Source: an uncultured Clostridia bacterium (GTDB lineage: Bacteria > Bacillota > Clostridia > TANB77 > CAG-465). From it: a DNA stretch of 64,000 nucleotides. The stretch is from positions 12,723 through 76,722 of the forward strand of contig CAKPEI010000001.1 of NCBI GenBank assembly GCA_934149365.1, written 5' to 3'. Position 1 is the stretch's first letter, and the number at the start of each line of letters is the position of its first letter. This document shows positions 2,222 through 38,942 of this stretch, piece by piece. A model generated the notes under the pieces. The model searched no databases, was not told the DNA's origin, and saw only the letters and a list, made by a program, of their open reading frames with translations. Both the position numbers and the translations under genes were made by a program.

Positions 2222-2302
<81 letters not shown>

Positions 2303-2375
2303 AAATGAGCTAGATAGAGGTTTCTGCGCTCAAAAAACAGATGTATTGGATAATAGAAAGTTAGTTATACAGTAA

Positions 2376-2400
2376 TGTATAGCTAGCTTTTTTGCGTGTT
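2376..2400 (+). promoter_or_regulatory. conserved palindrome/T-tract element TGTATAGCTAGCTTTTTTGCGTGTT between leader ORF and main gene
   Basis: Nearly identical at 4547-4570, 26109-26130 and 37676-37699. AGCTAGCT palindrome followed by T6. Confidence 0.5.
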
Positions 2401-2417: not shown

Positions 2418-4313
2418 ATGAAAACGAAGGTAAAATTAAAAAATGGAATATCACTAATAGTACTAGTGATAACAATAATAGTAATGATAGTATTAGCAGG
2501 AGCAGTGATACTAGCATTAAGCAATAGTGGAATAATAGAAAAAGCAACAAGCTCGGCATTTAAGACGGATGTAAAAACAATAAAAGAAGAATATGAATAC
2601 AAAATGGCAGAGCTAAAGCTAAATGATGAGACATTTGACCAAGCGACATTAAATGCTTCAGATACAACATTAAGTTATAATACAAAAACAGAAGAAGGTG
2701 GAAACCTATACAGTATAGTGCCGACAGCAGAAAAGTATAAAGATGAGTTTGAAGTAAGAGATGGAGTGCTAAGATACAAAGGAGAAAATTACAAAAAGTT
2801 AAATTGGGCAGAAGAAGTAGGAATAACAACAAATAGATATGAAATAGTAGATGGAGTATTATTATCATCAAACGCAAACTTGCTACTAGTGGGAACAGAT
2901 GGTAAGATAAGAATACCAAGTAATGTAGTAAAGATAGGAGAGGGAGCATTTAGTAATGTAGACGGATTAAAAGAAGTAACAATACCTGGCAATGTAAAAG
3001 AAATAGGACAAAACGCATTTTCAAGTAACAAAACATTAGAAAAAGTTGTAATGGAAGATGGTGTTAAAACAATAGGTAAGAGTGCTTTTAATCATTGTGT
3101 TTCACTTAAAAGTGTAACAATGACAGATAGTGTTACTGAACTTGGTAGTTTATCTTTTGACTTTTGTTTTAAGCTTGAAAATATTATATTATCAAATAAT
3201 ATAACTAAAATAACTACTAATTTTGGATATTGTTATGAATTAAAGGAACTAAAATTGCCTAAAAATATAACTGAAATAAAAAGTTCTTTTAAGTATGCAA
3301 ATATTAATAAATTAACAATACCAAAGAGCTTATCAAGCATAGTAGATTGTTTTAGTGAAGTAAATGAAATAACAATAGAAAGTGGCAATAACTATTTTGA
3401 GGTTGATGATGGAATACTTTACACTAAGGGAAAAGGAGAATTAATATATATCACTAAATCTAAAAGAGATGAAACTTCGATAACAATACCTGAAAAGGTT
3501 ATTACCTTGAATGCTAATGCATTTTCAAATAGTAAGTTTGAAGTAATAAACTTACCATCAACACTTACTGAAATAACAGGATATTTTAGTTCTAAAAATT
3601 TAAAAGAAATAAATATTTCAGATAGTAATACAATATATAAAAGTAGTAATGGTTCGCTATATAATAAAAATATGACAGAAACAATAGCAATAATATCAGA
3701 TGAAAAATTGGTTAATGTACCAAATGGTGTTACAACAATAGGTTCAAATTCGATGATATTATGTCAAAATGCTGAGAAAATAGTTTTTCCCGAGAGTGTA
3801 ACTACAATATTAGGAAATGCTGTTGCAGCTAGTACTACAGAAATTGAATTGGGGTCAAAAGTAAGCAACATAAAAGAGCTTCCGTTTGGCGCAAATAATA
3901 TTGTAGAAAAAGTTACTATAAATGCTGGTAATCAAACATATTCAGCAGATAATAACTATATATACAAATTAAATTCATCAAAACAAAAAGAAAAAATAGT
4001 TTATGCAATAACTAAAGAAAAGGAACTAACTGTGCCAGATGGAATTGATGAAATATGTGATTATGCCTTTCATAACAAACAAATTACCAAAGTTATTTTA
4101 CCTAATACATTGAAGAAAATAGGAATAGCTAGTTTTTCAGCATCTCTTTTAGAAAATATAGAAATACCAAGTAGTGTTGACACTATAGGAAGTGATGCAT
4201 TTGCTACTTCTACGTTAAAAGAAATAAAAATAAATAAGAAAAAAGGAAGTATAAGTGGAGCGCCTTGGGGAGCTCCAATAGGGGAAAGAGCAATAACATG
4301 GACTCAAAATTAA
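2418..4313 (+). CDS. secreted/surface protein: non-canonical prepilin-like N-terminus plus BspA-type leucine-rich repeat domain (family A, copy 1)
   Basis: RBS GGAGG. N-terminus MKTKVKLKNG|ISLIVLVITIIVMIVLAGAVILALS. Repeated IP.NV..IG..AF......L..V motifs typical of BspA-like LRR. 631 aa. Confidence 0.8.
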   Translation: MKTKVKLKNGISLIVLVITIIVMIVLAGAVILALSNSGIIEKATSSAFKTDVKTIKEEYEYKMAELKLNDETFDQATLNASDTTLSYNTKTEEGGNLYSIVPTAEKYKDEFEVRDGVLRYKGENYKKLNWAEEVGITTNRYEIVDGVLLSSNANLLLVGTDGKIRIPSNVVKIGEGAFSNVDGLKEVTIPGNVKEIGQNAFSSNKTLEKVVMEDGVKTIGKSAFNHCVSLKSVTMTDSVTELGSLSFDFCFKLENIILSNNITKITTNFGYCYELKELKLPKNITEIKSSFKYANINKLTIPKSLSSIVDCFSEVNEITIESGNNYFEVDDGILYTKGKGELIYITKSKRDETSITIPEKVITLNANAFSNSKFEVINLPSTLTEITGYFSSKNLKEINISDSNTIYKSSNGSLYNKNMTETIAIISDEKLVNVPNGVTTIGSNSMILCQNAEKIVFPESVTTILGNAVAASTTEIELGSKVSNIKELPFGANNIVEKVTINAGNQTYSADNNYIYKLNSSKQKEKIVYAITKEKELTVPDGIDEICDYAFHNKQITKVILPNTLKKIGIASFSASLLENIEIPSSVDTIGSDAFATSTLKEIKINKKKGSISGAPWGAPIGERAITWTQN

Positions 4314-4390: not shown

Positions 4391-4540
<150 letters not shown>

Positions 4541-4546
4541 AAAATA

Positions 4547-4570
4547 CATAGCTAGCTTTTTTGCGTGTTA
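4547..4570 (+). promoter_or_regulatory. conserved ATAGCTAGCTTTTTTGCGTGTTAA element (copy 2)
   Basis: See 2376-2400. Confidence 0.5.
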
Positions 4571-4583
4571 ATGGAGGAAAGTA

Positions 4584-6503
4584 ATGAAGGTAAAATTAAA
4601 AAAAGGAATATCACTAATAGTACTGGTGATAACAATAATAGTGATGATAGTATTAGCAGGAGCAGTGATACTAGCATTAAGTAATAGCGGAATAATAGAA
4701 AAGGCAACAAGTTCAGCATTTAAGACGGATGTAAAAACAATAAAAGAAGAATATGAATATAAAATGGCAGAGCTAAAGTTAAATAATGAAACATTTGACC
4801 AAACAACATTAAATGCGTCAGATACAATGCTAAGTTATAATACAAAAACAGAAGAAGGTGGAAACCTATACAGTATAGTGCCGACAGCAGAAAAGTATAA
4901 AGATGAGTTTGAAGTAAGAGATGGAGTACTAAGATATAAGGGAGAAAATTACAAAAAACTAAATTGGGCAGAAGAAGTAGGAATAACAACAAACAGGTAT
5001 GAAATAGTGGATGGAGTATTGTTATCATCAAACGCAAACTTACTACTAGTAGGAACAGACGGTAAGATAAGAATACCAAGTAATGTAGTAAAAATAGGAG
5101 AAGGAGCATTTAGTAATGTAGATGGATTAAAAGAAGTAACAATACCTGGTAATGTAAAAGAAATAGGGCAAAATGCATTTTCAAGTAACAAAACATTAGA
5201 AAAAGTTGTAATGGAAGAGGGTGTCACAACAATAGGATTAGGAGCTTTTTATAACTGTACTTTGTTGAAATCTGTAAGTATGACAGATAGTGTGGTTACA
5301 TTAAATGAACAATCATTTAATGGGTGTATCTCATTAAGTGATATAAAATTATCAAATAATATAACTGAAATACCGTATAATTTTTCTGGATGTTCTAGTT
5401 TAAATCAATTTAAATTACCGACTAGTGTTAAAAAAATATCAAATATATTATGGAATACTGCTGTAAAAGAAATTTATTTACCTAGTAGTTTGGAAACAAT
5501 AGGCGGAGGATGTTTTAGAGGGACTAGCCTTAGTAAGATAACAGTTGATAAAGATAATATTAATTTTGTGGTTGAGGATGGAATATTGTACGGTTCTGGT
5601 AAAACATCTATTATATATTTGACAGCAGATAAGAAAAAAGAAGAAAGTATTACAATTGCAGAAGGCGTAACAAAATTAGATGGAATAATTTTTGCAGAAA
5701 GTAGTATACAAAATATATCTTTACCGTCGACCTTGACAACAATAGAAAACTACTTTTCATCTGATAATATAAAAAGTATAACAGTAGCAGAAGGCAATAA
5801 GTATTTTGCTAGCAAGGATGGATCTTTGTATAACAAAGATATGACAAAAACAGTAGCAATAATATCAGACGAACAAAAAATTACTATACCAGAGGGAGTT
5901 ACCTCAATAGGTAGTTATTCACTATATTTATGTAAAAATGCTACTGAAGTAGTATTTCCTGAAAGTCTTAAGAGTATGGGGGCTTATTCAATAACACATG
6001 GTAATAAGTTAACTGCAGTAGAGAAAGTGTCTATTGGAGCTAGCGTTAATGATATAGCACATTTAGCTTTATATAATGGGTATAAGCTAAAAGAAGTTAA
6101 TATAAATTCTGCAAATAGAACATATAGTGCAGATGGCAATTTTTTATACAAATTAAATAGTAGTGGTGTTAAACAGGAAATAGTAGAGGCGATTGTTAAT
6201 GAATCAAATGTAACAATACCGGAGGGAATTAAAAAAATAGGAAAATATGCTTTTTATAACAATAAAATTGTAAACATAACATTACCTAGCACGTTAACTG
6301 AAATTAGTGATAGTGCATTTTCATCATGCTATTATTTAAATAATGTGCAAATACCAAGCGGTGTAGATACTATTGGTAGTAATGTTTTTTCAGCTTGTAG
6401 ATCTCTTAAGAGTGTAAAGATAAATAGGAAAAAAGGAAGTATAAGTGGATCTCCATGGGGAATACCAATAGGGGAAAGAGCAATAACATGGGCTGAAAAT
6501 TAA
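4584..6503 (+). CDS. secreted/surface protein: prepilin-like N-terminus plus BspA-type LRR domain (family A, copy 2; tandem paralog of 2418..4313)
   Basis: 639 aa. First ~210 codons nearly identical to copy 1. LRR region diverged. Last ~24 aa conserved (KKGSISG.PWG.PIGERAITW). Confidence 0.8.
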   Translation: MKVKLKKGISLIVLVITIIVMIVLAGAVILALSNSGIIEKATSSAFKTDVKTIKEEYEYKMAELKLNNETFDQTTLNASDTMLSYNTKTEEGGNLYSIVPTAEKYKDEFEVRDGVLRYKGENYKKLNWAEEVGITTNRYEIVDGVLLSSNANLLLVGTDGKIRIPSNVVKIGEGAFSNVDGLKEVTIPGNVKEIGQNAFSSNKTLEKVVMEEGVTTIGLGAFYNCTLLKSVSMTDSVVTLNEQSFNGCISLSDIKLSNNITEIPYNFSGCSSLNQFKLPTSVKKISNILWNTAVKEIYLPSSLETIGGGCFRGTSLSKITVDKDNINFVVEDGILYGSGKTSIIYLTADKKKEESITIAEGVTKLDGIIFAESSIQNISLPSTLTTIENYFSSDNIKSITVAEGNKYFASKDGSLYNKDMTKTVAIISDEQKITIPEGVTSIGSYSLYLCKNATEVVFPESLKSMGAYSITHGNKLTAVEKVSIGASVNDIAHLALYNGYKLKEVNINSANRTYSADGNFLYKLNSSGVKQEIVEAIVNESNVTIPEGIKKIGKYAFYNNKIVNITLPSTLTEISDSAFSSCYYLNNVQIPSGVDTIGSNVFSACRSLKSVKINRKKGSISGSPWGIPIGERAITWAEN

Positions 6504-7691: not shown

Positions 7692-8645
7692 TTAGATGTT
7701 TTTATGTGTTAGTTCTTCCATAGTAAGTAAGTATTCCCATTTTTTATCTACTTCCTTTTGGAATTCTTGTATCATCCATTCATTTCCAGGTTTAAACATA
7801 TGTGCAAATCTTTTTTGTGGTTTTAAAAATTCTTCTACTGGAAGTTTTTTTGCAGGTTTGTAATTAATTGTATAAACACCATCTTTAATTTCATATAAAG
7901 GCCAAAAGCATGTATCTACAGCTAACTTAGAAATTTCCATAAGCATATCTGTAGGATATCCCCAACCACGTGGACAAGGGGATAGAACTGCCATAAAACA
8001 AGGACCTTCGGTATAAATTGCTTTTTCTGCTTTCTCATGTATATCTTTAAAATTACCTATTAATGCTGTTTGGGCAACATATGCTGTGTTATTCTTTGCC
8101 ATTATTTCAGTTAAATCTTTTCTTGGTTGGACTTTACCAGGCAATACTTTACCTGCAGGTGCAGTTGTTGTATCTGCAAAGTGTGGAGTAGCAGAGGAAC
8201 GTTGTGTTCCGGTATTCATATATGCACCATTGTCATAGCATACATATACCATGTCATGACCTCTTTCCGTAGCACCAGAAAGAGCTTGAAGTCCAATATC
8301 ATAGGTTCCACCGTCACCACCAAAGGCAACAAACTTAACATTTTTATTTTTTAATTTTCCTTTTTTCTTTAATACGTTGTATGCTGTTTCAGCTCCAGAA
8401 CAAGTAGAGGCAGCATTTTCAAAAGCACTATGAATAAAGGAACTGTTTTTCCATGTAGTATATGGGTATATGCAAGAAGAAACTTCTAAACAGCCAGTAG
8501 CTGAAGTTACTACAACATCGTCTTCATCTTTTAAAGCTGACAATACACCTCTTACCACAACTGGAGCACCACATCCAGCACACATTCTGTGACCAGAAGT
8601 AAATCTTGTTTTCTTTTTTACAACTTCTTTTAAATTATATGCCAT
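7692..8645 (-). CDS. 2-oxoacid:ferredoxin oxidoreductase beta subunit (TPP-binding; POR/VOR type)
   Basis: 317 aa. CAGCG...GDG TPP-binding motifs. Confidence 0.8.
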   Translation of the reverse strand: MAYNLKEVVKKKTRFTSGHRMCAGCGAPVVVRGVLSALKDEDDVVVTSATGCLEVSSCIYPYTTWKNSSFIHSAFENAASTCSGAETAYNVLKKKGKLKNKNVKFVAFGGDGGTYDIGLQALSGATERGHDMVYVCYDNGAYMNTGTQRSSATPHFADTTTAPAGKVLPGKVQPRKDLTEIMAKNNTAYVAQTALIGNFKDIHEKAEKAIYTEGPCFMAVLSPCPRGWGYPTDMLMEISKLAVDTCFWPLYEIKDGVYTINYKPAKKLPVEEFLKPQKRFAHMFKPGNEWMIQEFQKEVDKKWEYLLTMEELTHKNI

Positions 8646-11244: not shown

Positions 11245-13491
11245 ATGTCAATAGTTAACATAAAAATATTGAAAGAAGGTGAAAAAATTAATAAAAAAGT
11301 TGTAACAATAGCTATATTAATATGTGTTTTAAATGTAATATATAAAATATATAGTTATTCATTTAAGTATAAATCAGATGAACAAAGTAAAATGTATGAA
11401 GTAATGGTTATAGAAAAACAAAAGCAGACTGATAATAAAGTAGTGTATTTATCAAAAATAGGAAAAGATAAGTTTTTACTTAATATATACTTTAAGAATA
11501 AGTATGGAGAAAATAATAACTTCACAGAAGAAGAAATTAAGCAAATACTTGCATATAATTATGGAGATCGTTTAAAAATTGAAGGAAAAATTACGATTTC
11601 AGAAGCTCTTGGTAATATTGGCGAGTTTGATTATAGAAAGTATTTAAATTCAAAAGGAATATATGGGACACTCGATGCGTATAAAGTTCAATATGTGGAA
11701 AACTATGCAGATAAATTAGGTAAAATTGTATATTTAGTGCGTGATAAAATATCAAATATATATACAAAAAACTTAGGTGAAAAACAAGCTGGTTTGCTTA
11801 AAGGAATGATATATGGTGATACTAGAAATTTAGATGATGAAATTAAAGAAGAATTTCAAAATATAGGAATAAGTCACATAACAGCAGTTTCTGGTTCTAA
11901 CTTAAACACTTTATTACTTATTATGGGAATAGTTATGTATAAATTTAATAAAAAGAGAATATATGTGATAATTCAAATAATTTGCATAGTTATGTTTTGT
12001 TTAATTTCAGGTTTAGAGCTTTCTGTTTTACGTGCTGGTATTATGACTACAATACTTATCATTGGAAAAATTAGAAATACAAAAATAAATATATTTAAAC
12101 TACTTTTAGTAACTTTTGCAATAATGATTTATATAAATCCATTTAGAATATTTAATGTTGGAATGATTATGTCCTTTTTATCTATAATTGGATTATCTTT
12201 GTTTAGTAAAAAGATATATAATTTTTTAGAAAGTAAAATTAAATGGAAAGTTAAAAACAAAAAGGTAGTTGGCATTCTTTGTAAAATAGCTAATGCAATT
12301 TCTATAACATTTGCTATAAATATAACCACACTTCCTATAACTATTTATTCATTTAACAGATTTTCTCTAATTAATGTTTTGTCTAATTTGTTAGTTTCAT
12401 TCTTATCTGATAGCATTTGTATATTAGGAATAATATCAGTTATATTAGTAAAAATTCCTTATCTATCAACAGGTATATTTTATACTTTGAATTTTCTAAT
12501 ATCTGCATTGATATATATTGCAAAATTTCTAGATAAAATCTCGTTTTTAATAAATCTTAAATCAATTCCGTTTTATATAATATTAATATATTATTTTTAC
12601 ATATTTGCTTTTTCTTTAAGCAAATATATTTTAACAAGTCATAAAAGGTTTGAAAGTGTGTATAAAAAGACAAGAAGAGGAATAGCTATATTGTTTATAT
12701 TTTGCATTTTATTTTGGCATATTAATATTATTTTCTTAGATAATTATGTGTATTTTTTTAATGTAGGACAAGGTGAAATGGCTTTAGTAAAAGAAAATAA
12801 CACATATGTAATGATTGATTGTGGTTCAATAACAAATGATACTTCGTATATATTTGATAGCTTTGCCAAAAAACAAAATATAAATAAAATAGATGTGATT
12901 ATACTTTCACATTTCCATAGTGATCATACAAATGGAATAGAAAAAATATTGGAGAAATATAAAGTTTCATATTGTATATACGCTTATCCTGCTAGTTTTG
13001 AAAATGAAGAATATATAAAAACTATGGAGGTTATTCAAAAGAATAATATTAAATGCATAGTTGTAAAAGAAAAGGACAATATAAAAATAAATAACATAGA
13101 TATAAGTGTTTTATCTCCTGGTCTTAGCTACGTTTATGGCAGAGATAATGATGAAAGTGAAAACATTAATTCTTTAGTTTTTAATTTAAATATTAGAAAA
13201 AAGAATTTTCTCTTTACAGGTGACAGCGTAGTAAGAAGTGAAACTAAAATACTTGAAAATATTAAGTACATGAGAATATCTAAATTTGATATTTTAAAAG
13301 TTGCACATCACGGTTCTAAAACTTCCACATCTGATAATTTTATTCAAAATATACTTCCTAAAGCTGCAATTATATCGTCTAAATACAAAGTATATAAACA
13401 CCCTAGTAAACAAACAATTAACATTCTAAATAGATATAATGTGATTACATATATAACAGAAAAGTGCGGTGGGATAAAATATATTATTTAA
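11245..13491 (+). CDS. comEC: DNA internalisation competence protein ComEC/Rec2 (competence domain plus metallo-beta-lactamase domain)
   Basis: 748 aa polytopic membrane protein. C-terminal HFHSDH MBL motif. Confidence 0.8.
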   Translation: MSIVNIKILKEGEKINKKVVTIAILICVLNVIYKIYSYSFKYKSDEQSKMYEVMVIEKQKQTDNKVVYLSKIGKDKFLLNIYFKNKYGENNNFTEEEIKQILAYNYGDRLKIEGKITISEALGNIGEFDYRKYLNSKGIYGTLDAYKVQYVENYADKLGKIVYLVRDKISNIYTKNLGEKQAGLLKGMIYGDTRNLDDEIKEEFQNIGISHITAVSGSNLNTLLLIMGIVMYKFNKKRIYVIIQIICIVMFCLISGLELSVLRAGIMTTILIIGKIRNTKINIFKLLLVTFAIMIYINPFRIFNVGMIMSFLSIIGLSLFSKKIYNFLESKIKWKVKNKKVVGILCKIANAISITFAINITTLPITIYSFNRFSLINVLSNLLVSFLSDSICILGIISVILVKIPYLSTGIFYTLNFLISALIYIAKFLDKISFLINLKSIPFYIILIYYFYIFAFSLSKYILTSHKRFESVYKKTRRGIAILFIFCILFWHINIIFLDNYVYFFNVGQGEMALVKENNTYVMIDCGSITNDTSYIFDSFAKKQNINKIDVIILSHFHSDHTNGIEKILEKYKVSYCIYAYPASFENEEYIKTMEVIQKNNIKCIVVKEKDNIKINNIDISVLSPGLSYVYGRDNDESENINSLVFNLNIRKKNFLFTGDSVVRSETKILENIKYMRISKFDILKVAHHGSKTSTSDNFIQNILPKAAIISSKYKVYKHPSKQTINILNRYNVITYITEKCGGIKYII

Positions 13492-25946: not shown

Positions 25947-26027
25947 ATGTTAACTAAAGAGCATGCAAACAGTATAACTCTAGAGAGAGAGAGAGAGAGA
26001 GAGAGAGCATACAATTTAAAAATATAG
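25947..26027 (+). CDS. leader peptide ORF MLTKEHANSITL(ER)4AYNLKI containing the (GA)13 tract
   Basis: RBS AAAGAGGTGAAAA. ATG 25947. Stop TAG 26025-26027. Confidence 0.5.
   Translation: MLTKEHANSITLERERERERAYNLKI
25982..26007 (+). repeat. dinucleotide microsatellite (ag)13 inside the leader ORF
   Basis: 26-nt perfect tract. Confidence 0.95.
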
Positions 26028-26108
26028 CTACAAAAGTAGCTGCGTTTTGCGTGCAGAAAATAAAAGAGAATAGTAATGTAAAAGAAGTTAGTTAGACAGA
26101 GTAGAAAG

Positions 26109-26130
26109 TATAGCTAGCTTTTTTGCGTTT
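26109..26130 (+). promoter_or_regulatory. conserved GTATAGCTAGCTTTTTTGCGTTTAA element (copy 3)
   Basis: See 2376-2400. Confidence 0.5.
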
Positions 26131-26235: not shown

Positions 26236-27432
26236 ATGAGAACAAAAGTTAAACTAAAAGGCGGAATATCATTAATAGTATTAGTAATAACAATAATAGT
26301 AATGATAATACTAGCCGCAGCAATAATATTATCGCTATCAAACAGTGGAATAATAGGAAAGGCAAATAAAGCAAAGACAGATACAGACATATCAAATGCA
26401 AAAGACTTAGTGGCTATGGCTCATGCAGACTGGATGCTAGATGAGGCAAAGATAAAAGAGAACGATGATACAATAACATCATTTAGTAACTATGCAGAAA
26501 AGAAATTACAAGAAGCAGGATATAAAGTAGGAGCAGGAGAAGGAGCATATACAGTAACAGAAGATGGAGAAGTATATACAGGTCTAACAGAAACAGCAAG
26601 AGCAGGAATAACAGCAGGAATAAAAATAGGAGATGAAGTAAAGTATAATGCAGTACTAACAGCAAAAAGAACTACAACAGACGGAAGTGAACAAAGTTCA
26701 ACAGGAGCAGCAGATATTACGAAGAAACAAACAGTAAAAACAAATACAAGCTATACATGGAAATATATAGGATTAGGAGAAGATGGAAGTTTACTTATAG
26801 CGCCAGATATGACAGGGACAATAGGAGCAGACTATAAATTAATATTAGGATATAAAGGAGGTTATATAAATGGACCAAAAATGTTAAATACAATATGTGA
26901 TATTTTATATACAGTAGAGGGAAAAGGAAAAGCTCAAAGTATGAATATAGACATAGTAAACAAAATATTAGAATATAATGGACCAAAAGGAAGATACTAT
27001 GATGCAAGTAGTAATACAGTAGAAACAACAGAAGCAATGACAATAGCAGAATTGGAAACAAAATTTAATAGTAAATTAGCAAGAGATTATGTGCCAGAGG
27101 GGAAAGATTTAGGAGAATATAAATCAGACTATTATTACATAAACAAAACATACCATGCAAGCAGAATAACCAAAGATACAGTGAAACAAAATCTAGTATA
27201 TCAAGCAAATACATATTGGCTTGCTTCTCCGTGTGTCGATGCGAATTTGGACATCGGTTATGCGAGTTTCCATGTACGCTGCGTTAACTCTACTAGCGTG
27301 GACGCGACCAACATGTTCAATCCGTATGTCTCCGATAGTAGCTTTCCCTGCGCTGTCCGTCCGTATGTTTCTCTAACATCTAATGTCCAGAAAACAACAG
27401 AAAATGGAAAAACAGTATGGACATTAAGCTAG
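26236..27432 (+). CDS. secreted/surface protein: prepilin-like N-terminus plus C-terminal YWLASPCV domain with candidate variable region (family B, copy 1)
   Basis: RBS AAGGGGG. N-terminus MRTKVKLKGG|ISLIVLVITIIVMIILAAAIILSLS. 398 aa. Confidence 0.8.
   Translation: MRTKVKLKGGISLIVLVITIIVMIILAAAIILSLSNSGIIGKANKAKTDTDISNAKDLVAMAHADWMLDEAKIKENDDTITSFSNYAEKKLQEAGYKVGAGEGAYTVTEDGEVYTGLTETARAGITAGIKIGDEVKYNAVLTAKRTTTDGSEQSSTGAADITKKQTVKTNTSYTWKYIGLGEDGSLLIAPDMTGTIGADYKLILGYKGGYINGPKMLNTICDILYTVEGKGKAQSMNIDIVNKILEYNGPKGRYYDASSNTVETTEAMTIAELETKFNSKLARDYVPEGKDLGEYKSDYYYINKTYHASRITKDTVKQNLVYQANTYWLASPCVDANLDIGYASFHVRCVNSTSVDATNMFNPYVSDSSFPCAVRPYVSLTSNVQKTTENGKTVWTLS
27239..27372 (+). other. candidate DGR-type variable region (GC-rich, NNC-codon-rich 3' segment)
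   Basis: Composition shift (gcg, ccg, cgc, gac, gtc codons) in an otherwise AT-rich gene. Differences from paralogs fall at first/second codon positions. Confidence 0.45.
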
Positions 27433-27915: not shown

Positions 27916-30132
27916 GTGATAAAGAAAATGTTTAAGGGTATATTTAAAAGAAGAAAGGTTGCATATGTAGGGCTCATGCTTGGCGCGTTTTGTGTGTTTG
28001 GTAAGTGTTATGCTGCAAGTTATGCGACTTCAACGATTTCAGATAGCTTCCCAGCAAGTTATCAATCATATATAAATAGATTAAAAAGTAGTCATCCTAA
28101 TTGGAATATTAAGGCTTTTTATACACATTTAGATTGGAATACAGTTCTTAATTCGGAGTCAAAAGGAACATATTCAAGAGTTCAAAATTCGGCATATGGT
28201 GATGCATGGAAAAGAACAGAAGCAGCAAATGATAGTTCATATAATGCAGCAGGTTTTGTACTTGCTTCAAGAGCTGCAGTAGCATATACATTGGACCCAA
28301 GGAACTTCTTAACAGATGAAGGAATATTTCAATTTAGGGTAATAGATAAAGATGTGGCTTCGGATACAGAAACTGCTGTAAAAGAAGTTGCACATAGTAC
28401 ACCAATGTACACAAATGATTATGCTAGTATTATAAAGAAAGTGGGAAATGATAAGAATATAGCTCCAACTTTTATAATATCAAGAATAAGACAAGAAACA
28501 GGTTGTGATACTGTAAATAACGGAAGTATAAATGGTAAAAACTCTAAATATCCTGGTTATTATAACTTCTTTAATATTGGAGCAAGAGATGGAAATGGAG
28601 CTGTACAAGCTGGTATAAATTTAGCACATACTAATGGATGGAATACACCAGAAAAAGCTATTGCAGGTGGAATGGACTGGCTAAACAAAAACTATGTTAA
28701 ATGGGGACAAAGTACAGTATATTTCCAAAAGTTTGATGTAGCAAACCCATATGGTAATGCAACAACGCTTCTTTCTATGCAGTATATGTCTAATATATCT
28801 GCACCAATGGGAGAGGCCAAAATTGCATATAAAGGAATTGAGAGGGCAGGTATATTAAATAACACATACACTTTCTATATTCCAATATATGATAATATGC
28901 CATCAATAGCTTCACCTAGTCCAACTATAGGGTACTATGAAAATGATAGCACAATGGTATATCTAGATGACCCAGATACAAATGATAGCTACGATACTTT
29001 TAAAATAAGGTCAACAGCGGACTCTTCTAGTTCTAGTAATGTAGTGTATACATTAAAAGAGTCTAGTGATATAAATAAAAAGACAGCAATGACAAGAATA
29101 AAAAAAGGCATTGATACTGGTTGGGACTATGTTGAGTTTGAAGTAAATGGTCAAAAGATAGAAGGCTATGTATGGAACTATTATGTATTTGAATATTCAT
29201 ATACTAAAGTAACAGCAATATCTTTAGATAGTGCAAACAAAACATTAAAAGTAGGCGATACTTTTAAACTTTCAGCTACAATAGAACCTTCAAATGCTAA
29301 ATTTAAGGATGTAACATGGAGTAGTTCAAATAATAACGTGTTAACAGTAGACAGTAATGGTAATGTTAAAGGAGTTGCAGCAGGTTCAGCTATTGTAACT
29401 GCTACAACAAAAGACCAACAAAAAACAGCTACATGCACAGTAACAGTTACTGATAAAGACCCAAGTATATCTTTAGATAAAACTAAATACAGTGTAGTGA
29501 GTGGAAAGTTAACACCTTTTAGTGTTGATATAGAATATACTGACGTGTCAGATTATGATGTGAAAATAGAGGATGAAAATATTGCTAAAATTCAAGATGG
29601 AAAAATATTAGGAGTTAAAGAAGGAACAACTAAATTAATTGTTACTTTAAAAGGAACTAATATAAAGGCAGAAGCAGAGATTAATGTAATTGAGATAAAA
29701 GAGGGAGATATAGTAATTGATAGTTCTTTAGATGTGAATAATGATGTTGTATCAAATATATCACCTGAAACAAAAGCACAAGATATAATTGGAAAAGTTC
29801 AATCTTCATACACAGTAGCATTAAAAAATAAATCAGGAGAAACATTAACAGGAGATGCTTGTGTTGGAACGGGAAGTAAAATTCAGATTTTAGATAATGC
29901 AGGTACGGTTATATATGAGTACACAGTTTTAATATATGGAGATGTAACTGGTGATGGTAAAATAACTTCAAAGGACTATATGGCAATTAAAAATCATATA
30001 ATGGGAACGGCTACAATTACAGGAATAGAAGCAAAAGCAGCAGACAGTTTTAGAGATAATAATATAACTTCAAAAGACTATATGATTATTAAAAATCATA
30101 TAATGGGAACATCTGTGATTAGTCAGAAATAA
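27916..30132 (+). CDS. secreted multidomain protein: GH73-like glucosaminidase (putative peptidoglycan hydrolase) domain, Big_2 Ig-like domains, C-terminal type I dockerin
   Basis: Signal peptide. RQETGCD...YNFFNIGA (GH73-like). Big_2 (VTWSSSNNNVLTVDSNGNVKGVAAGSAIVTATT). Dockerin repeats GDVTGDGKITSKDYMAIKNHIMG twice. 738 aa. Confidence 0.7.
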   Translation: MIKKMFKGIFKRRKVAYVGLMLGAFCVFGKCYAASYATSTISDSFPASYQSYINRLKSSHPNWNIKAFYTHLDWNTVLNSESKGTYSRVQNSAYGDAWKRTEAANDSSYNAAGFVLASRAAVAYTLDPRNFLTDEGIFQFRVIDKDVASDTETAVKEVAHSTPMYTNDYASIIKKVGNDKNIAPTFIISRIRQETGCDTVNNGSINGKNSKYPGYYNFFNIGARDGNGAVQAGINLAHTNGWNTPEKAIAGGMDWLNKNYVKWGQSTVYFQKFDVANPYGNATTLLSMQYMSNISAPMGEAKIAYKGIERAGILNNTYTFYIPIYDNMPSIASPSPTIGYYENDSTMVYLDDPDTNDSYDTFKIRSTADSSSSSNVVYTLKESSDINKKTAMTRIKKGIDTGWDYVEFEVNGQKIEGYVWNYYVFEYSYTKVTAISLDSANKTLKVGDTFKLSATIEPSNAKFKDVTWSSSNNNVLTVDSNGNVKGVAAGSAIVTATTKDQQKTATCTVTVTDKDPSISLDKTKYSVVSGKLTPFSVDIEYTDVSDYDVKIEDENIAKIQDGKILGVKEGTTKLIVTLKGTNIKAEAEINVIEIKEGDIVIDSSLDVNNDVVSNISPETKAQDIIGKVQSSYTVALKNKSGETLTGDACVGTGSKIQILDNAGTVIYEYTVLIYGDVTGDGKITSKDYMAIKNHIMGTATITGIEAKAADSFRDNNITSKDYMIIKNHIMGTSVISQK

Positions 30133-30151
30133 ATAATAGGAGGAATATATA

Positions 30152-31501
30152 ATGATTAAAAACAAAAGAATAAAATATTTATCAATATTTATGTTGATGT
30201 TTGTGTTTGCTATAACTAACTTTGTGTATGCAGCAGGAAGCTTTAGTGTAAGTGCTAACAAAACATCATTAAATCCTGGAAATACAGCAACTATAACAAT
30301 AAAGACAAATAATTGTGCAGGTAAGTTTAGTGTTTCATCATCAAATACTTCAGTTGCAACTGTATCTACAGGTTCAACTTGGGTAGATGGAACTGCTACA
30401 ATAACAGTAACAGCTAAAGCAAATGGAAGTGCTAATATAACGGTGACACCAGTTGATGTGTCTGATACAGACTTAAATGATGTTACTGGTAGTAAATCAG
30501 TTACTATAAAAGTAACAACACCTTCTAGTAATACAAATACTAACAAGCCAAGTAGTGGTAGCAATTCTAATAGTAATACAAACAAGAATAACAATAGCAA
30601 TAAAAATAATACAAGTTCAAAATCTTCAAATGCTAATCTTAAAAATATGATACTTAGTGTTGAAGGCCTTTCACCTGCATTTGCTAAAAATATCACATCG
30701 TATTCTCTAAAAGTTGGGGAAAATGTGGATACAATAAAGGTAAATGCTTCAGTTGAACATAATAGAGCTTCTTATTCAGTATCAGGTAATACTAATTTAA
30801 AAGTTGGAGAAAATATAATTACAGTAAAAGTAACAGCAGAAGATGGTACTGTAAAAACATATAAAATAACTGTACTTAAATCAGATGATCCAGTAAAATC
30901 TGATGCAACACTTTCTTCTGTTATAATTGAAGATGTAAATTTAGGGCAGGCATTTGACCCTAATGTTACTGAGTACAATGCAGGAGATATAACTGTTAAA
31001 TCAAGTAAGCTTAATATTTTAGCTTATCCAAATAATGATAATGCTAAAGTTGAAATATTAGGTAATGAAAATTTGGGCGTTGGTGAAGGAAAAATAACAA
31101 TAAGGGTTACATCTGAAAATGGAAAAGTAACTAAAGATTATGTAATAGCTTTTAACAAACTTTATGCAGAAACTAATGCAAACAATGTGGATATATATGG
31201 TGATTCTTTAAGAGCAAGAGAAAATAACAAACCATCATTTTGGTCAAAACTAAAAGATTGGTATGAAGCAAACTTAAAAGAACACATGACAGTTATTGTG
31301 CTATATGTATTTGTTTGGGTAGAATTTTTACAAGTAGTATATTTATATGAAAGATTAAGAAAATATGAAGATTTAGATAAAATAACTGTTGGTAAAAGAA
31401 TAAATAGAGAAGATAAAAAAGAAAAAGCTCCAAAGGAAGAAAAACCAAGAAGAGCAAAACAAAATCCTGTATTCCCTGAAGAAACAGAAAATAAAGAATA
31501 G
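30152..31501 (+). CDS. membrane-anchored partner protein: N-terminal Ig/cohesin-like domain, Ser/Asn/Thr linker, two cadherin-like beta-sandwich domains, C-terminal transmembrane anchor and charged tail
   Basis: Signal peptide. L..LS...G.LSP.F......Y...V cadherin-like repeats. C-terminal transmembrane segment IVLYVFVWVEFLQVVYLY then a KE-rich tail. 449 aa. Confidence 0.65.
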   Translation: MIKNKRIKYLSIFMLMFVFAITNFVYAAGSFSVSANKTSLNPGNTATITIKTNNCAGKFSVSSSNTSVATVSTGSTWVDGTATITVTAKANGSANITVTPVDVSDTDLNDVTGSKSVTIKVTTPSSNTNTNKPSSGSNSNSNTNKNNNSNKNNTSSKSSNANLKNMILSVEGLSPAFAKNITSYSLKVGENVDTIKVNASVEHNRASYSVSGNTNLKVGENIITVKVTAEDGTVKTYKITVLKSDDPVKSDATLSSVIIEDVNLGQAFDPNVTEYNAGDITVKSSKLNILAYPNNDNAKVEILGNENLGVGEGKITIRVTSENGKVTKDYVIAFNKLYAETNANNVDIYGDSLRARENNKPSFWSKLKDWYEANLKEHMTVIVLYVFVWVEFLQVVYLYERLRKYEDLDKITVGKRINREDKKEKAPKEEKPRRAKQNPVFPEETENKE

Positions 31502-31512
31502 TGTAAATAATT

Positions 31513-31550
31513 GGGTATAAATGCAAAATATGTGTTTATACCTATTTTAT
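31513..31550 (+). terminator. rho-independent terminator
   Basis: Hairpin ggtataaa-tgcaaaatatgtg-tttatacc then T-run. Confidence 0.5.
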
Positions 31551-31680
31551 ATATTTTTTCTATATAAAAATATATCTAAATTTAAGTAAATGAATTAATA
31601 TATTTAAAGTTGTAAATAATAATATGTATAAATATTTTTATTTATAGCTTTATTTTTTTTACTTAGGAAAGGAGTTATTA

Positions 31681-33888
31681 ATGAATGAAAAAAGGGTAAT
31701 TAGTTTAAATAAAATGATAGCTTTAATATGTATGCTATGTACTTTTTTTATAGGAAGTAAAGTTTTTGCTGCAACTAAGAGTGTAGGAATAGATAGTTTT
31801 CCAAGTAGTTATCAAATATATTTAAAACAAATTCAAAAGCTCCATCCTAATTGGACATATACAGCACTAAATACGGGGATTGATTGGAATACGGTCATAA
31901 AAAACGAAGGACCTAGTGTAGATTTAAAAAGAAGTGCTATAGGAATTTCATTTGCTGATGTGTGGAAATGGAAAAATAGCAATGGTGCATATAATTTAAT
32001 AGAGCCAGGTTGGGTAACAGCATCTGAGCTTGCTGTGGCATATAGTATGGACCCAAGAAAATACATAAATGAAATGCAAATATTTCAGTTTGAAACTTTA
32101 AATTATGACTCTAGTGTCCAAAATCAAACAGGTGTAGAAAAGATATTTTATGGTACTTTAATGTACCAAAAAAATATCTCATATATAGATACAAATGGGA
32201 AAACTCAAACAATAAATAAAACGTATAGTAAAGTGGTAATGGAAGCTGCTGCAAAATATGGAGTAAGTCCATATCATTTAGCGTCTAGAATAAAACAAGA
32301 AACAGGTTGTGATATACAAAATAACACATCTATAAAAGGAAATGTGTCTGGCTATGTTGGACTATATAATTATTTTAATATAGGAGCAACGGGAGGAAGT
32401 AATCCTGCTATATCAGGACTTGCATATGCAAGAAGTGTAGGATGGACCACTCCGGAACTTGCAATAAATGGTGGTGCAGAGTTCTTATCTCAGAAATATA
32501 TAAATAAAGGGCAATATACTACATATTTGCAAAAATTTAATGTAAATGATAATAGTTCATATAGCTTATACACACATCAATATATGCAAAACATATTAGC
32601 TCCATCTTCTGAAGCTGTAAATACTCATAGTGCCTATTCTAAGATGGGTTTACTTGACATACCTTTTAATTTTGTAATACCAGTGTATGACAATATGCCA
32701 AACTTACCTGTAGATATATATACAGAAAATCCATCTGACTATGTGAAAGATAGCACAAAAGTGTATTGTACAAGTAATTTAAATATAAGGTCGGGAGCCG
32801 GAACTGGTAACAGTGCATTACTCACAGCACCTAAAGGCACAGTTATGACTAGAATAGCAAGAGGTGTTCAAGCAGGAGAAAGATGGGATAAAGTAAGGTT
32901 AGATACAGGACTTGAAGGTTATGTATTCCAGAGCTATATTAAAGAATGTTCATATACTAAGGTAACAGGTGTACAAATTAGCAGTGATGAAATTGATGTT
33001 GAAGTGGGAAAAGAGACTAGTCTAAAAGCAGAAGTATTACCAAGTAATGCTACATACAAAGATGTTACATGGAGTTCAAGTGATAGTAACATAGTAAGTG
33101 TAAGTCAAGACGGAAAAGTAACTGGAGTAAAAGAAGGTATGGCATATGTAACTGTTAAGAGTGATGACCAACTAAAAGAAGCAAGATGTGTTGTAAATGT
33201 AGTAAAGAAAAAAGAACCAAAACTAGAACTTGATAAAGATACATATATTGTTTTAAAAGGAAAGTCTACTAAACTTAATATAACTACATTAAATGTTGAT
33301 AACCCAGAGTATGAAATAGCTGTTCAAAATGAAGAAATTGCTAAAGTAGAAGAAAATAAAATATATGGAATAGAAGAAGGAGAGACAAATATAACAATAT
33401 CACTTGTAGGTACAACTCTAAAGGTTCAAGCTAAAGTTAAAGTAGTTGATATAAAAGAAGGAGAAATAAAAATTAATGAAAGTATAAAAGTAGAAGAAGA
33501 TATTATTAGTAAAATAGAACCAGAAACTACAATCTCAAGCATATTAGATAAAATTGAAACCTCATATGATGTGAAAGTAAAAGAGAAATCAGGAAAAAAT
33601 TTAGGTGAAAATGATATTGTTGGAACTGGAAGTAAAGTTCAGATTTTAGATAGTGCAGGTGCGGTAATATATGAGTATACAGTTTTAATATATGGAGATG
33701 TGACTGGTGACGGAAAAATAACGTCAAAGGATTATATGGCAATTAAAAATCATATAATGGAAACAAGCAGGTTAAATAAAATAGAACAAAAAGCAGCAGA
33801 TAGTTTTAAAGATGGCAATATAACCTCAAAGGATTATATGATAATAAAAAATTACATAATGGGTGTAAGTAAAATAAATCAAGAGTAA
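31681..33888 (+). CDS. second GH73-like/Big_2/dockerin secreted protein (paralog of 27916..30132)
   Basis: 735 aa. Same domain order. Dockerin GDVTGDGKITSKDYMAIKNHIME...DGNITSKDYMIIKNYIMG. Confidence 0.7.
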   Translation: MNEKRVISLNKMIALICMLCTFFIGSKVFAATKSVGIDSFPSSYQIYLKQIQKLHPNWTYTALNTGIDWNTVIKNEGPSVDLKRSAIGISFADVWKWKNSNGAYNLIEPGWVTASELAVAYSMDPRKYINEMQIFQFETLNYDSSVQNQTGVEKIFYGTLMYQKNISYIDTNGKTQTINKTYSKVVMEAAAKYGVSPYHLASRIKQETGCDIQNNTSIKGNVSGYVGLYNYFNIGATGGSNPAISGLAYARSVGWTTPELAINGGAEFLSQKYINKGQYTTYLQKFNVNDNSSYSLYTHQYMQNILAPSSEAVNTHSAYSKMGLLDIPFNFVIPVYDNMPNLPVDIYTENPSDYVKDSTKVYCTSNLNIRSGAGTGNSALLTAPKGTVMTRIARGVQAGERWDKVRLDTGLEGYVFQSYIKECSYTKVTGVQISSDEIDVEVGKETSLKAEVLPSNATYKDVTWSSSDSNIVSVSQDGKVTGVKEGMAYVTVKSDDQLKEARCVVNVVKKKEPKLELDKDTYIVLKGKSTKLNITTLNVDNPEYEIAVQNEEIAKVEENKIYGIEEGETNITISLVGTTLKVQAKVKVVDIKEGEIKINESIKVEEDIISKIEPETTISSILDKIETSYDVKVKEKSGKNLGENDIVGTGSKVQILDSAGAVIYEYTVLIYGDVTGDGKITSKDYMAIKNHIMETSRLNKIEQKAADSFKDGNITSKDYMIIKNYIMGVSKINQE

Positions 33889-33902
33889 AGGAGAAAAAAG
33901 AA

Positions 33903-35126
33903 ATGAAAATTAACAAATTAAATTATTTAAGAATATTTGCTATTCTTCTAGTATTTTTTGTAGTAAGCAAGGTGCAAGCTGCGGGAACATTTAGTGTAAG
34001 CACAAACAAAACATCTTTAAAGCCAGGAGAAACTGCAACAGTTACAATAAAAACTAATAACTGTGCTGGAAAATTCGGAATAAGTTCATCTAACACTGGA
34101 GTTTTAACAGTATCTACAGGTTCAACTTGGGTAGATGGAACAGTAACAGTTACAGTAACTGCAAAAGCTAATGGAACAGCTAGTATATCAGTAAACCCAA
34201 TTGATGTATCAGATAATGATTTAAATGATGTAAAGGGAAGTAAATCAGTTAGTATAAAAGTAGCAACTCCACAAACTACTACCACTCCAAGTACGTCTGG
34301 CACTACAGGAAGTAATAAAACTACGGGAACAACTAAACCTTCTACTAGTAAAACTAGTACTACTACAAAATCAGTAAGCAATAATGCGTATTTAAAAGAA
34401 TTTCGAGTTGATAGACCTGGCATTTCACCTAGTTTTAACAAAAATACATTTAACTATTCTATTACAGTTGATGAAAGTGTAGATAAACTAAATGTAACTG
34501 CAGTTCCAGAAAACAGTAAGGCAAGTGTTAGTATAACCGGAAACACTGGTTTAAAAACAGGTGATAATGTTATAACGGTAAAGGTTGTAGCAGAAGATAA
34601 AAAAACAAGTAAAGTGTATAAAATATTTGTAACAAAAGCAGATGATGAAGCAAAATCTAATGCGTATTTACAAAACCTAATAGTATCAAATATGACACTA
34701 ACACCAGAATTTTCTAAAGAAATTTTTGAATATAGTTTAGGAGACATTTCATATGATGTGGAAAAACTTGAAATATCTGCATTTCCAGTTAATGAAAAAG
34801 CTAAAGTTGAAATAACTGGAAACGATAAACTTGTGGTTAATGAAAATACTATAAAAATAACAGTAACATCTGAAAACTCTAAAGTTCAAAAGGTATATAC
34901 ATTAAAGGTAAACAAAAAAGAGGGTGTAAGTAAAGAAGAAAACAAGCAATTGGAGAGTAAGGAAGAGGAAAGTATGCTTGTTGATAAGTGGTCCAATATT
35001 AAAATAGCATTGAAGGAAAAAGCCCCTATACTTTGGTTATATGCTTTTGTTTGGGTAGAATTTTTACAAGTAGTATATCTATATGAAAAGCTTAAGAAAA
35101 AAGATGATGTAACTCATATAAAATAA
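33903..35126 (+). CDS. second membrane-anchored cohesin-like/cadherin-like partner protein (paralog of 30152..31501)
   Basis: 407 aa. Same architecture and the same C-terminal transmembrane motif FVWVEFLQVVYLYEKL. Confidence 0.65.
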   Translation: MKINKLNYLRIFAILLVFFVVSKVQAAGTFSVSTNKTSLKPGETATVTIKTNNCAGKFGISSSNTGVLTVSTGSTWVDGTVTVTVTAKANGTASISVNPIDVSDNDLNDVKGSKSVSIKVATPQTTTTPSTSGTTGSNKTTGTTKPSTSKTSTTTKSVSNNAYLKEFRVDRPGISPSFNKNTFNYSITVDESVDKLNVTAVPENSKASVSITGNTGLKTGDNVITVKVVAEDKKTSKVYKIFVTKADDEAKSNAYLQNLIVSNMTLTPEFSKEIFEYSLGDISYDVEKLEISAFPVNEKAKVEITGNDKLVVNENTIKITVTSENSKVQKVYTLKVNKKEGVSKEENKQLESKEEESMLVDKWSNIKIALKEKAPILWLYAFVWVEFLQVVYLYEKLKKKDDVTHIK

Positions 35127-37523: not shown

Positions 37524-37595
<72 letters not shown>

Positions 37596-37675
37596 TATCT
37601 AGAAATAAACTAGATAGAGGTTTTTACGCGCAAAAGACATATTATTAGATAATATAAAGTTAGTTATACAGTAAA

Positions 37676-37772: not shown

Positions 37773-38942
37773 ATGATGAAAAACTTAAGAAAAAACAAAA
37801 GCGGAATATCACTGATAGTATTAGTAATAACAATAATAGTAATGATAATACTAGCAGCCGCAATAATACTATCACTATCAAATAGTGGAATAATATCAAA
37901 AGCAAACAAAGCCAAAACAGATAGTGATACAGCAAATTTAAAAGAGTATGTAAATACACTAAGAGCAGAATGGGAGTTAATGACAGCAGAAAAACAGGCA
38001 GAAGAAGGTTCATTTGTAGATTATGCAAATTCAAAGTTAGCTGAGAAAGGTTATAAAGTAATGCTATCAGATGACGGAGTACTAATGAATGAAGCAGCGA
38101 CAGCTGCAGTAAAAGCAGGAATAAAAGTAGGAGATACAGTAACAGGGTATACATTGGATGTGGCTACATATACAACAGACGGAAGTGAGAATACATGTGA
38201 TGCAAAAAAACAAGAAGAAACAGATCCACAACCACAAGAAGTAACAGCAAATACGCAGCTAAGATGGAAATACTTAGGAGTAAATGCAAATGGAGAACTA
38301 GAAATAATGGCAGATTTAGGAACAACAGAAGTTGCAGCAAATACAAAAGTAACATTAGGCGGAAAAGGTGGTTATTTAAAAGGACCAGATATGTTAAATA
38401 CAATATGTGAAAAATTATATTCAAAAGATGGAGTAGGAACAGCAAGAAATATGAATATAGATGATGTAAATAATATATTGGGTTATATAGGAGAAAAGGG
38501 ATCATATTACTATATTGATGACGAGTACACACCAACTAAAGAAGCAAAAACAATAGCTACGTTAGAAAGCGAATTAGGAATGACATTAGATGGTAGAACA
38601 ACACCAGATGGAAAAGACTTAGGAATGTACTATTTAGATTATTACAATATAAGTAGAACAGATGATGTAAAAAAGATGAAAAAACCAGGGAATGTGGATT
38701 TAGTATACAATGCTAAAAATGAATACTGGCTTGCTTCTCCGTGTGTCTCTGCAATGTTCTTCGGCAACATGGCGACTTTCAGTGTTCGCTATGTTAACTC
38801 TGCTGCTGTGGGCGGGAACGGCGTGTTTAGTTCGTATGACTACTTTGCCGGCCATACTTATGCGGTCCGCCCTGTAGTAACTTTAAATTCTAATGTTAAA
38901 TTAACACCAAATGCAGATAAAACAGAGTGGGGAATAAGTTAG
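37773..38942 (+). CDS. secreted/surface protein: prepilin-like N-terminus plus YWLASPCV C-terminal domain with candidate variable region (family B, copy 2)
   Basis: ATG 37773 after RBS GGGAGG. The ORF-track start 37692 runs through the RBS. N-terminus MMKNLRKNKSG|ISLIVLVITIIVMIILAAAIILSLS. Confidence 0.8.
   Translation: MMKNLRKNKSGISLIVLVITIIVMIILAAAIILSLSNSGIISKANKAKTDSDTANLKEYVNTLRAEWELMTAEKQAEEGSFVDYANSKLAEKGYKVMLSDDGVLMNEAATAAVKAGIKVGDTVTGYTLDVATYTTDGSENTCDAKKQEETDPQPQEVTANTQLRWKYLGVNANGELEIMADLGTTEVAANTKVTLGGKGGYLKGPDMLNTICEKLYSKDGVGTARNMNIDDVNNILGYIGEKGSYYYIDDEYTPTKEAKTIATLESELGMTLDGRTTPDGKDLGMYYLDYYNISRTDDVKKMKKPGNVDLVYNAKNEYWLASPCVSAMFFGNMATFSVRYVNSAAVGGNGVFSSYDYFAGHTYAVRPVVTLNSNVKLTPNADKTEWGIS
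38748..38880 (+). other. candidate DGR-type variable region
   Basis: 16 of ~41 codons are NNC. GC-rich patch. Confidence 0.45.

Follow-up and report, generated by a model that had tools for sequence, protein, structure and literature searches.

The stretch of DNA analysed here (contig CAKPEI010000001.1; 64,000 nucleotides, in the following the window) is a chromosomal fragment of 30% GC from an uncultured gut Clostridia bacterium. It carries five genes that feature a common N-terminus—a basic leader of few residues and, after it, the invariant segment G·ISLIVLVITIIVM, with the dot marking the predicted cleavage site. They are probably genes for modular, type IV pilin-like adhesins belonging to a lineage-specific class without Glu at position 5 (Glu5). 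The window also contains housekeeping genes (L10/L12, PFOR, ComEC, AlaRS-like, MreBCD, and PBP2), and identical copies of window genes are present in Hadza and other gut metagenomes of ENA. The five genes and the signal-peptide-like core of the first one are located as follows:

2418..4313, + strand: gene 1, with leader MKTKVKLKN-G, then ISLIV..., about 120 aa, and a BspA-type leucine-rich repeat (LRR) solenoid (from the translation; LRR_5 E = 1.2e-66)
4584..6503, + strand: gene 2, tandem paralog of gene 1 (LRR_5 E = 7e-78)
26236..27432, + strand: gene 3, with a putative pilin module (helix 13–76 and small head), a middle domain, and a C-type-lectin-like YWLASPCV domain
37773..38942, + strand: gene 4, with the architecture of gene 3 and leader MMKNLRKNKS-G
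53699..54901, + strand: gene 5, with the architecture of gene 3; its ATG is +1 out of frame relative to the open reading frame (ORF) from the Gly codon at 53726
2445..2537, + strand: class III signal-peptide-like core of gene 1, consisting of Gly-1 and the 30-residue alpha1N segment

The cores equivalent to that of gene 1 start at 4605 (gene 2), 26263 (gene 3), 37803 (gene 4), and 53726 (gene 5). A degenerate 38-nt motif occurs in the window exactly at these four positions and at 2445, with zero occurrences expected from 100 shuffles. After the leader Gly, genes 1–4 continue with the identical GISLIVLVITIIVMI followed by (I/V)LA(A/G)A(I/V)IL(A/S)LSNSGII; at the ORFs 2418, 4584, 26236, and 37773, the stretch ahead of this variable continuation reads ISLIVLVITIIVMI. 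An earlier, sequence-only reading had described all five genes as beginning with a basic leader that ends in Gly, which holds for genes 1–4 but fails for gene 5 because of its out-of-frame ATG. The leader consensus M(K/R)TKVKLK(N/G)G given there applies to just genes 1 and 3; the leaders of genes 2 and 4 read MKVKLKKG and MMKNLRKNKSG. Its two cargo classes on one leader are confirmed as LRR_5 repeats in genes 1 and 2 and the YWLASPCV domain in genes 3–5.

Conservation at the DNA level across the cargo classes, put at about 100 nt before, covers the first 60 nt after the Gly but drops beyond: Genes 1 and 3 share 90% and 87% identity over these 60 nt, then 67%, and then less than 50%. Much of this conservation can be attributed to protein constraint and codon bias because a paralog at the related locus L113 (loci of related DNA carry L numbers here) keeps 32 of 33 residues identical despite 17 differences in 99 nucleotides. 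Some concerted evolution among the five window copies is likely as well, since ATA is used for 39 of their 40 Ile codons, exceeding the genome-wide share of 66%. A phage family is ruled out: A scan of viral contigs for the motif gave no match.

The N-terminus recurs far beyond the window. With a cut-off of E ≤ 0.001, a profile built on it matches 25,552 representative clusters (defined at 50% identity), of which 3,622 remain at E ≤ 1e-10; the matches fall almost exclusively on residues 1–105 of proteins of 104–660 aa. Among the top 142 representatives, Gly occupies position -1 in 139 (Ala in 2), Ile position +1 in 136, and Val position +5 in 139—as it does in all five window genes. The leaders of these representatives and of four of the five window genes comprise 3–10 aa and are rich in K, R, Q, and N. 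LRR_5 is the cargo in 28 of the 142; others carry DUF285, DUF6273, Big_2, or FGE-like domains, and most match nothing known. When GTDB species genomes are scanned for exact copies of the 14-residue motif, at least 100 loci are found, with about 14 genomes among the matches listed. These listed matches are all labelled 'MAG: Clostridia bacterium' (MAG, metagenome-assembled genome), encode proteins of 124–779 aa, and reach more than 20 copies per genome. The assignment of the five genes to a modular family of Glu5-less, pilin-like N-termini with adhesin-type cargo is supported.

A pilin-like N-terminus with Val at position 5

The notion of a type IV prepilin-like N-terminus without Glu5, raised by the sequence-only reading, is supported by pilins in operons of relatives, by type IV pilus (T4P) machinery in the species, by a profile match in register, and by a structure model. 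When the profile of the N-terminal 100 residues is compared with the PDB (177,635 sequences), the best two matches are Geobacter PilA-N, at E = 0.014 and 0.055. The alignment places KKG·FTLIE over KKG·ISLIV, is in register at Gly-1, and continues through alpha1C; MshA is also found among the matches. A search with the first 66 residues retrieves many proteins of 106–116 aa that start with MKKG·ISLIVLVITIIVMIIIAGAII and have variable C-terminal halves, and some of these relatives are already labelled PilE or PulG by JGI annotators. In the Pfam and NCBIfam scan, gene 4 has a weak match to GspG (E = 0.14), and weak matches to the membrane-anchored families SAG1386/EF1546 and FliL cover the same N-terminal stretch.

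In the AlphaFold model of the gene 3 protein (50 homologues; predicted local distance difference test score, pLDDT, of 90), a helix of 64 residues (13–76) leads into a small head, and the chain ends in a C-type-lectin-like domain. As in pilins, whose alpha1 helix comprises about 50 residues and opens with about 21 hydrophobic ones, a near-invariant hydrophobic stretch of about 24–25 residues starts the alpha1 helix, and a globular head comes after the helix.

In known bacterial T4P, Glu5 forms a salt bridge between subunits (PMC10191384). Its absence had been taken as a mark of tip pilins of the GspK type, an assignment that has to be dropped: Val at +5 occurs lineage-wide, and since the whole family features it, down to the small presumed major pilin, it cannot mark GspK-like tip subunits.

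Pilus machinery, leader processing, and alternative readings

No T4P assembly genes lie within the 64-kb window. Pilins of 107–137 aa with the identical alpha1N are encoded within T4P operons of L009, L010, and six GTDB genomes (eight loci). The gene order of these operons is PilMN-PilO-p117-pilin-A24N-p143-p58-PilB-PilT-PilC, in which p143 and p58 are pilin-like. The machinery comprises a PilB with MshEN, a PilT retraction ATPase, a two-domain PilC, and PilM-N/PilO. The same eight relatives also hold many scattered large paralogs.

In the window's own species, the machinery was traced through PilB. The PilB of a relative (L088) retrieves P0188 at 90% identity. The longest contig with P0188 measures 386,617 bp, which is also the length of the longest contig on which the exact MreB of the window is found along with a homologue of gene 3. 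The P0188 loci (L113–L115, Hadza samples) contain the A24N homologue, a 378-aa pilin-like protein, a 65-aa pilin-like ORF, PilB, PilT, and PilC, and directly after pilC, two proteins of 610–619 aa with an ISLIV or ISMIV N-terminus. A further paralog, P0404, is located on the same record as the PilB locus L115 (NODE_162; 173,804 bp). Hence, the P0188 loci very probably belong to the species of the window, and the counter-case named in the earlier reading—a genome devoid of T4P machinery—does not apply, as PilB, PilT, and PilC are present in this species with two paralogs adjoining them. The 378-aa protein (p378; L113:8623-9759; MSLKSKRG·ITVTS...) shows a weak Laminin_G_3/ConA-like match at E = 0.004, below the Pfam cut-off. 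P0006 is probably a broken gene.

The search for a pilD-type prepilin peptidase, proposed earlier as a check, gave a divided result: A homologue with the methylase N-domain is present, but it has no peptidase domain. This operon-encoded PilD homologue (L113:7824-8618, L009:10506-11333, and five more in alignment A9) matches A24_N_bact at E = 3e-31 and retains four invariant Cys residues. Two transmembrane (TM) segments and a loop rich in K connect its methylase domain to a C-terminal half that resembles a pseudopilin; this half features a conserved Gly-1 and Glu or Asp at +5—the only acidic +5 in the system. Because of Gly or Ala at -1, the form of the leader, and the retained methylase domain, the leader is probably removed at the Gly. 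Directly upstream of gene 5 (window 52452-53531), there are genes for an Rce1-like CPBP intramembrane protease and for a 93-aa membrane protein; there is no sign that either of them processes the family.

Several observations weigh against an assignment of these proteins to a T4P. The prepilin models PF07963 and TIGR02532 (IPR012902), suggested as a check by the sequence-only reading, find nothing in the window proteins at E ≤ 1, and Glu5 is absent even from the presumed major pilin. The PilD homologue of the operon has neither a Peptidase_A24 domain nor a conserved catalytic Asp, and no catalytic prepilin peptidase of the A24/GxGD type was found in 1.06 Mb of related DNA. More than 20 paralogs per genome are far above usual sets of minor pilins. 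The T4P locus is assigned to the window's genome via contig-level links instead of the window's own assembly, and PilMN, PilO, and the small pilin were not seen in 21 kb of the locus in this species. On the structural side, the AF2 model of gene 1 is confident in the LRR region (160–620) and of low confidence in residues 1–160, where the alignment is shallow, and a Foldseek search with the gene 3 model against the PDB and BFVD gave no significant whole-chain match.

Some of these points would fit an uncleaved signal-anchor, i.e. a pilin-derived helix that now tethers surface proteins to the cytoplasmic membrane independently of any pilus. The lack of a detected catalytic prepilin peptidase, the absent Glu5, the presence of dozens of copies per genome among housekeeping genes and away from T4P genes, and the weak SAG1386/EF1546 and FliL matches over the same stretch can all be read in this way. 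However, a plain anchor needs neither an invariant 14-residue sequence over about 25,000 clusters nor a strict Gly or Ala at -1; moreover, the identical helix occurs on the operon pilin, paralogs follow directly after pilC, and the operon retains a PilD homologue with a methylase domain, implying that the N-terminus is processed. We regard a pilus-independent, uncleaved anchor as unlikely, although it is the main rival of the prepilin reading.

A second alternative places the proteins in a different type IV filament—for example a competence pseudopilus or a short secretion-type pseudopilus—in place of a pilus driven by PilB, PilT, and PilC. It draws on ComEC, which is encoded in the window (11245-13491) with DUF4131, Competence, and Lactamase_B domains. 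This gene points to a DNA-uptake system, and Com pilins and a ComC peptidase are probably encoded elsewhere in the genome; ComC could supply the cleavage. The shared alpha1N, however, is found on the pilin of the PilBTC operon, two paralogs lie within that operon in this species, and no Com pilin genes were seen, which makes a separate filament very unlikely.

Least credible of all is a Sec signal peptide that is cut by signal peptidase I after ALS or SLS and releases soluble LRR and lectin proteins: Small residues do occupy -3 and -1 after the hydrophobic stretch (A-L-S, S-L-S), but the stretch of about 24–25 hydrophobic residues is modelled as one helix continuing to residue 76, Sec h-regions being 7–15 residues long, poorly conserved, and followed by an AXA-type site; moreover, conservation extends past the putative site (SNSGII.KA..A), and the link to T4P operons would go unexplained.

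Leader peptides, allele replacement, and a diversity-generating retroelement

Upstream of genes 1–4 lie the only four dinucleotide microsatellites of the window—three of type (AC)n and one of type (AG)n—each within an upstream ORF (uORF):

2222..2302, + strand: uORF of gene 1, 26 aa, MLTKELETIGRVTHTHTHTHTHTSNI; (AC)16.5 at 2258-2290; short frame
2360..2393, + strand: terminator-like hairpin and U-run between this uORF and gene 1 (dG -13.2)
4391..4540, + strand: uORF of gene 2, 49 aa; (AC)16.5 at 4427-4459; long frame with its stop within the hairpin 4528-4556
25947..26027, + strand: uORF of gene 3, 26 aa; (AG)13 at 25982-26007; short frame; weaker hairpin at about 26087-26118
37524..37595, + strand: uORF of gene 4, 23 aa, MSTNARKTIGRVTHTHTHTHTHK; (AC)15.5 at 37560-37590; short frame; hairpin at about 37659-37687

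The whole units from uORF to hairpin span 2222-2393, 4391-4562, 25947-26118, and 37524-37693. The uORFs are preceded by a strong Shine-Dalgarno sequence, the start of the encoded peptide is conserved, and the repeats encode (Thr-His)n or (Glu-Arg)n; a strong hairpin with U-run follows 58–80 nt after the repeat. Of the three frames that leave the repeat, two end within 5–29 nt at 24 loci from several species; the stop of the third is found at +52 to +88, inside the hairpin (+58 to +104) or at it. Compensatory changes are found in 6 of 13 stem pairs, and the repeat length varies between strains. Of 36 such repeats in related loci totalling 1.08 Mb, 33 lie upstream of a family member. No Rfam family matches the upstream leaders. 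Longer leader peptides were shown experimentally to destabilise the terminator of Streptococcus gallolyticus pil1 (Danne et al. 2014, PMC3894217). Under the pil1 logic, only the long frame reaches the terminator; gene 2 would therefore be ON and genes 1, 3, and 4 OFF in this assembly.

The idea of a recombining, modular family, put forward in the earlier reading, gains support from gene 5 alleles replaced between strains and from a mosaic of genes 1 and 2. The alleles of gene 5 differ by a dS of 0.16–0.7 between strains with identical gene 4, which supports their wholesale replacement. Genes 1 and 2 (2418-3060 versus 4584-5220) are nearly identical in their first ~213 residues and diverged in their LRR parts, with 65% identity overall; this suggests either gene conversion at the 5' end or diversifying selection on the LRRs.

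In gene 5, the ATG at 53699 is preceded by a strong Shine-Dalgarno sequence, and its distance to the GGA codon of the Gly is 28 nt instead of 27. The frame set by this ATG is closed by a stop about 34 codons on; in the frame of the long ORF (53726-54901), the first possible start is an internal Met at 53765. Both the broken leader and the open frame behind it are kept in five strain assemblies (the window and four others). Leaders shifted by one base also occur in L005–L008, L113/L114:16498-16526, L116:5937-5962, L014, L085, and L094; the ORFs downstream of such leaders stay open for 284–615 codons, and 40 of 120 clusters of the gene 3 family are called from an internal Met. Conceivable readings of these out-of-frame leaders are an OFF phase, silent cassettes, and +1 frameshifting at CGG, a rare codon (4 of 17,489 codons). 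For gene 5, +1 frameshifting is not separable from a 1-nt insertion, as any C before GGA creates CGG in the shifted frame.

The lectin-type cargo bears traces of a diversity-generating retroelement (DGR). The gene of the paralog P0404 (L116:6001-9362, Hadza NODE_162) is followed by a MutS_I fragment, bAvd, a template repeat (TR; 8024-8182), and a reverse transcriptase (RT) of the RVT_1 family. TR and variable region (VR) of P0404 differ at 28 of 44 adenines and at 0 of 105 other positions—the pattern of an active-looking DGR—and the VR spans the YWLASPCV...AVRPVV segment. VR-like segments are found in genes 3–5, each compared here with the TR of the species' DGR:

27219..27370, + strand: gene 3; differences at 22/44 TR adenines and 14/105 positions elsewhere (Fisher p = 5e-6)
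38729..38877, + strand: gene 4; 26/44 at TR adenines versus 16/105 elsewhere (p = 2e-7)
54685..54830, + strand: gene 5; 26/42 at TR adenines versus 12/104 elsewhere (p = 2e-9)

Genes 3–5 thus differ from the TR of P0404 at 50–62% of adenine positions and at 11–15% of the others, and each carries a C-type-lectin-fold domain with a C-terminal variable region. The YWLASPCV domain is a DGR target type. Neither a TR nor an RT lies within the 64-kb window, and current DGR activity at the window genes is not supported, since the positions at which strains differ in genes 3 and 5 are outside the VR; the adenine-biased pattern of genes 3–5 would represent a historical signature or one acquired in trans.

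Two further groups of features lie in the window. Between genes 3 and 4 (27916-35126), there are four genes for proteins with Sec signals, arranged as two repeated pairs and carrying Big_2, Dockerin_1, Cadherin-like, and SH3_3 domains; they possibly form a cellulosome-like or surface-assembly module. A 45-nt tandem repeat (46611-47087; 10.6 copies, 91% matches) is situated within an ORF of 590 aa (46020-47792), which has an N-terminal TM segment and no Pfam match and encodes a repetitive surface or coiled protein.

Proposed mechanism and comparison with known systems

If the five genes encode modular pilin-like adhesins, their N-terminus would act as a class III signal peptide with 3–10 basic residues, Gly-1, Ile1 to Val5, and about 24 hydrophobic residues that start an alpha1 of about 64 residues. 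The alpha1 helix would insert the protein into the membrane like a pilin, and the leader would be removed at the Gly. The invariant alpha1N may then allow PilB, PilT, and PilC (and PilMN and PilO) to incorporate the protein into a retractile pilus or to place it at the pilus tip; the pilus would be built from the small pilin with the same alpha1N. The binding parts would be the C-terminal modules: the BspA-type LRR solenoid of genes 1 and 2 and the C-type-lectin-like domain of genes 3–5. Expression may be set ON or OFF for each gene by the (AC)n or (AG)n repeat in the leader peptide, which would determine—by the precedent of pil1—whether the ribosome reaches the terminator. Cassettes could be replaced by recombination within the conserved 5' end, and lectin-type cargo could in addition undergo adenine-directed hypermutation by the DGR.

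Taken further, the system may constitute a distinct subclass of type IV filaments in uncultured low-GC gut Clostridia, a proposal we make tentatively. In this subclass, all subunits would lack Glu5, the PilD homologue would be reduced to its methylase domain and fused to the only pseudopilin with an acidic +5, alpha1N would serve as a universal adaptor for dozens of adhesin modules, and these modules would be subject to switching by (AC)n attenuators and leader frameshifts and, in the case of the lectin modules, to DGR hypermutation. If true, there would be a bacterial T4P that assembles without the canonical salt bridge between Glu5 and the N-terminus, along with a programmable adhesin repertoire; assembled filaments of this kind would challenge the view that bacterial major pilins need Glu5. 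About 25,000 clusters with a pilin-like N-terminus go unseen by curated prepilin models, and surveys based on IPR012902 miss them. Three layers of diversification—switching by simple sequence repeats (SSRs) and attenuators, cassette exchange, and DGR hypermutation—would act on one adhesin scaffold. The family occurs in abundant, uncultured Clostridia of human and animal guts and offers handles for studying their attachment and their evasion of immunity or phage.

The pil1 locus of S. gallolyticus (PMC3894217) likewise features an SSR in a leader-peptide ORF and a subsequent stem-loop terminator that only the long frame reaches. It differs by its GCAGA repeats and by the control of one sortase-pilus operon, whereas the repeats described here are dinucleotide ones, (AC)n or (AG)n, and would control many single genes of a type IV pilin-like family in several species.

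Among DGR-diversified proteins with a lectin fold are Mtd of Bordetella phage, TvpA of Treponema denticola, and LdtA of Legionella; P0404 likewise adjoins bAvd, TR, and RT. In contrast to DGR variable proteins, the window genes 3–5 are not beside an RT, and they also carry differences at 11–15% of non-adenine positions. The idea of DGR-diversified pilus adhesins is shared with the type V pilus adhesins of Bacteroides (bioRxiv 2024.11.15.621889), in which type IV pili and Clostridia are unmentioned; the carrier here is a type IV pilin-like module, and the host belongs to Clostridia. In a DGR survey, GspG-type pilin domains are only rare VR carriers.

Archaeal type IV pilins and archaellins share with the family the short basic leader, Gly or Ala at -1, and a hydrophobic helix without Glu5. 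Their class III signal peptides are processed by PibD/FlaK. The machinery here, in contrast, is bacterial and T4aP-like, and no archaeal-type peptidase was seen.

GspK/PilK-type tips and S. sanguinis PilA lack an acidic +5 residue as well (PMC9934059, PMC10191384), and the degenerate class III signal peptide of the latter is missed by bioinformatic tools (PMC9934059, PMC10191384). GspK/PilK systems have a single Glu5-less cap, whereas all pilin-like proteins here are without Glu5. Compared with the GspK type, the family features neither the GspK alpha-domain nor an HIJK operon context, and its genes are scattered.

Genes 1 and 2 have the strong LRR_5 solenoid in common with BspA-like surface proteins. 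The usual anchors of the latter are Por/T9SS, LPXTG, or choline-binding modules; genes 1 and 2 would be anchored by the pilin-like N-terminus instead. The BspA-type LRR is the domain listed as IPR026906. A pilin fused to IPR026906 is among the 15 commonest architectures of modular pilins (Raynaud et al. 2021, PMC8179133); this survey would miss the family described here because it is keyed on IPR012902.

Similar in design are the modular pilins of S. sanguinis, PilB with vWA and PilC with a ConA-like lectin (PMC8179133), which likewise consist of a small pilin module and an adhesive module joined by a short linker; the p378 of the window's species recalls the architecture of this PilC by its weak Laminin_G_3/ConA-like match. 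The modular pilins (PMC8179133) feature Glu5 and match IPR012902, whereas the family here features Val5 without a match to prepilin models, and even its presumed major pilin lacks Glu5. The former are encoded by two to three genes of one operon; the latter are scattered, with 5 genes in 64 kb and more than 20 per genome in relatives.

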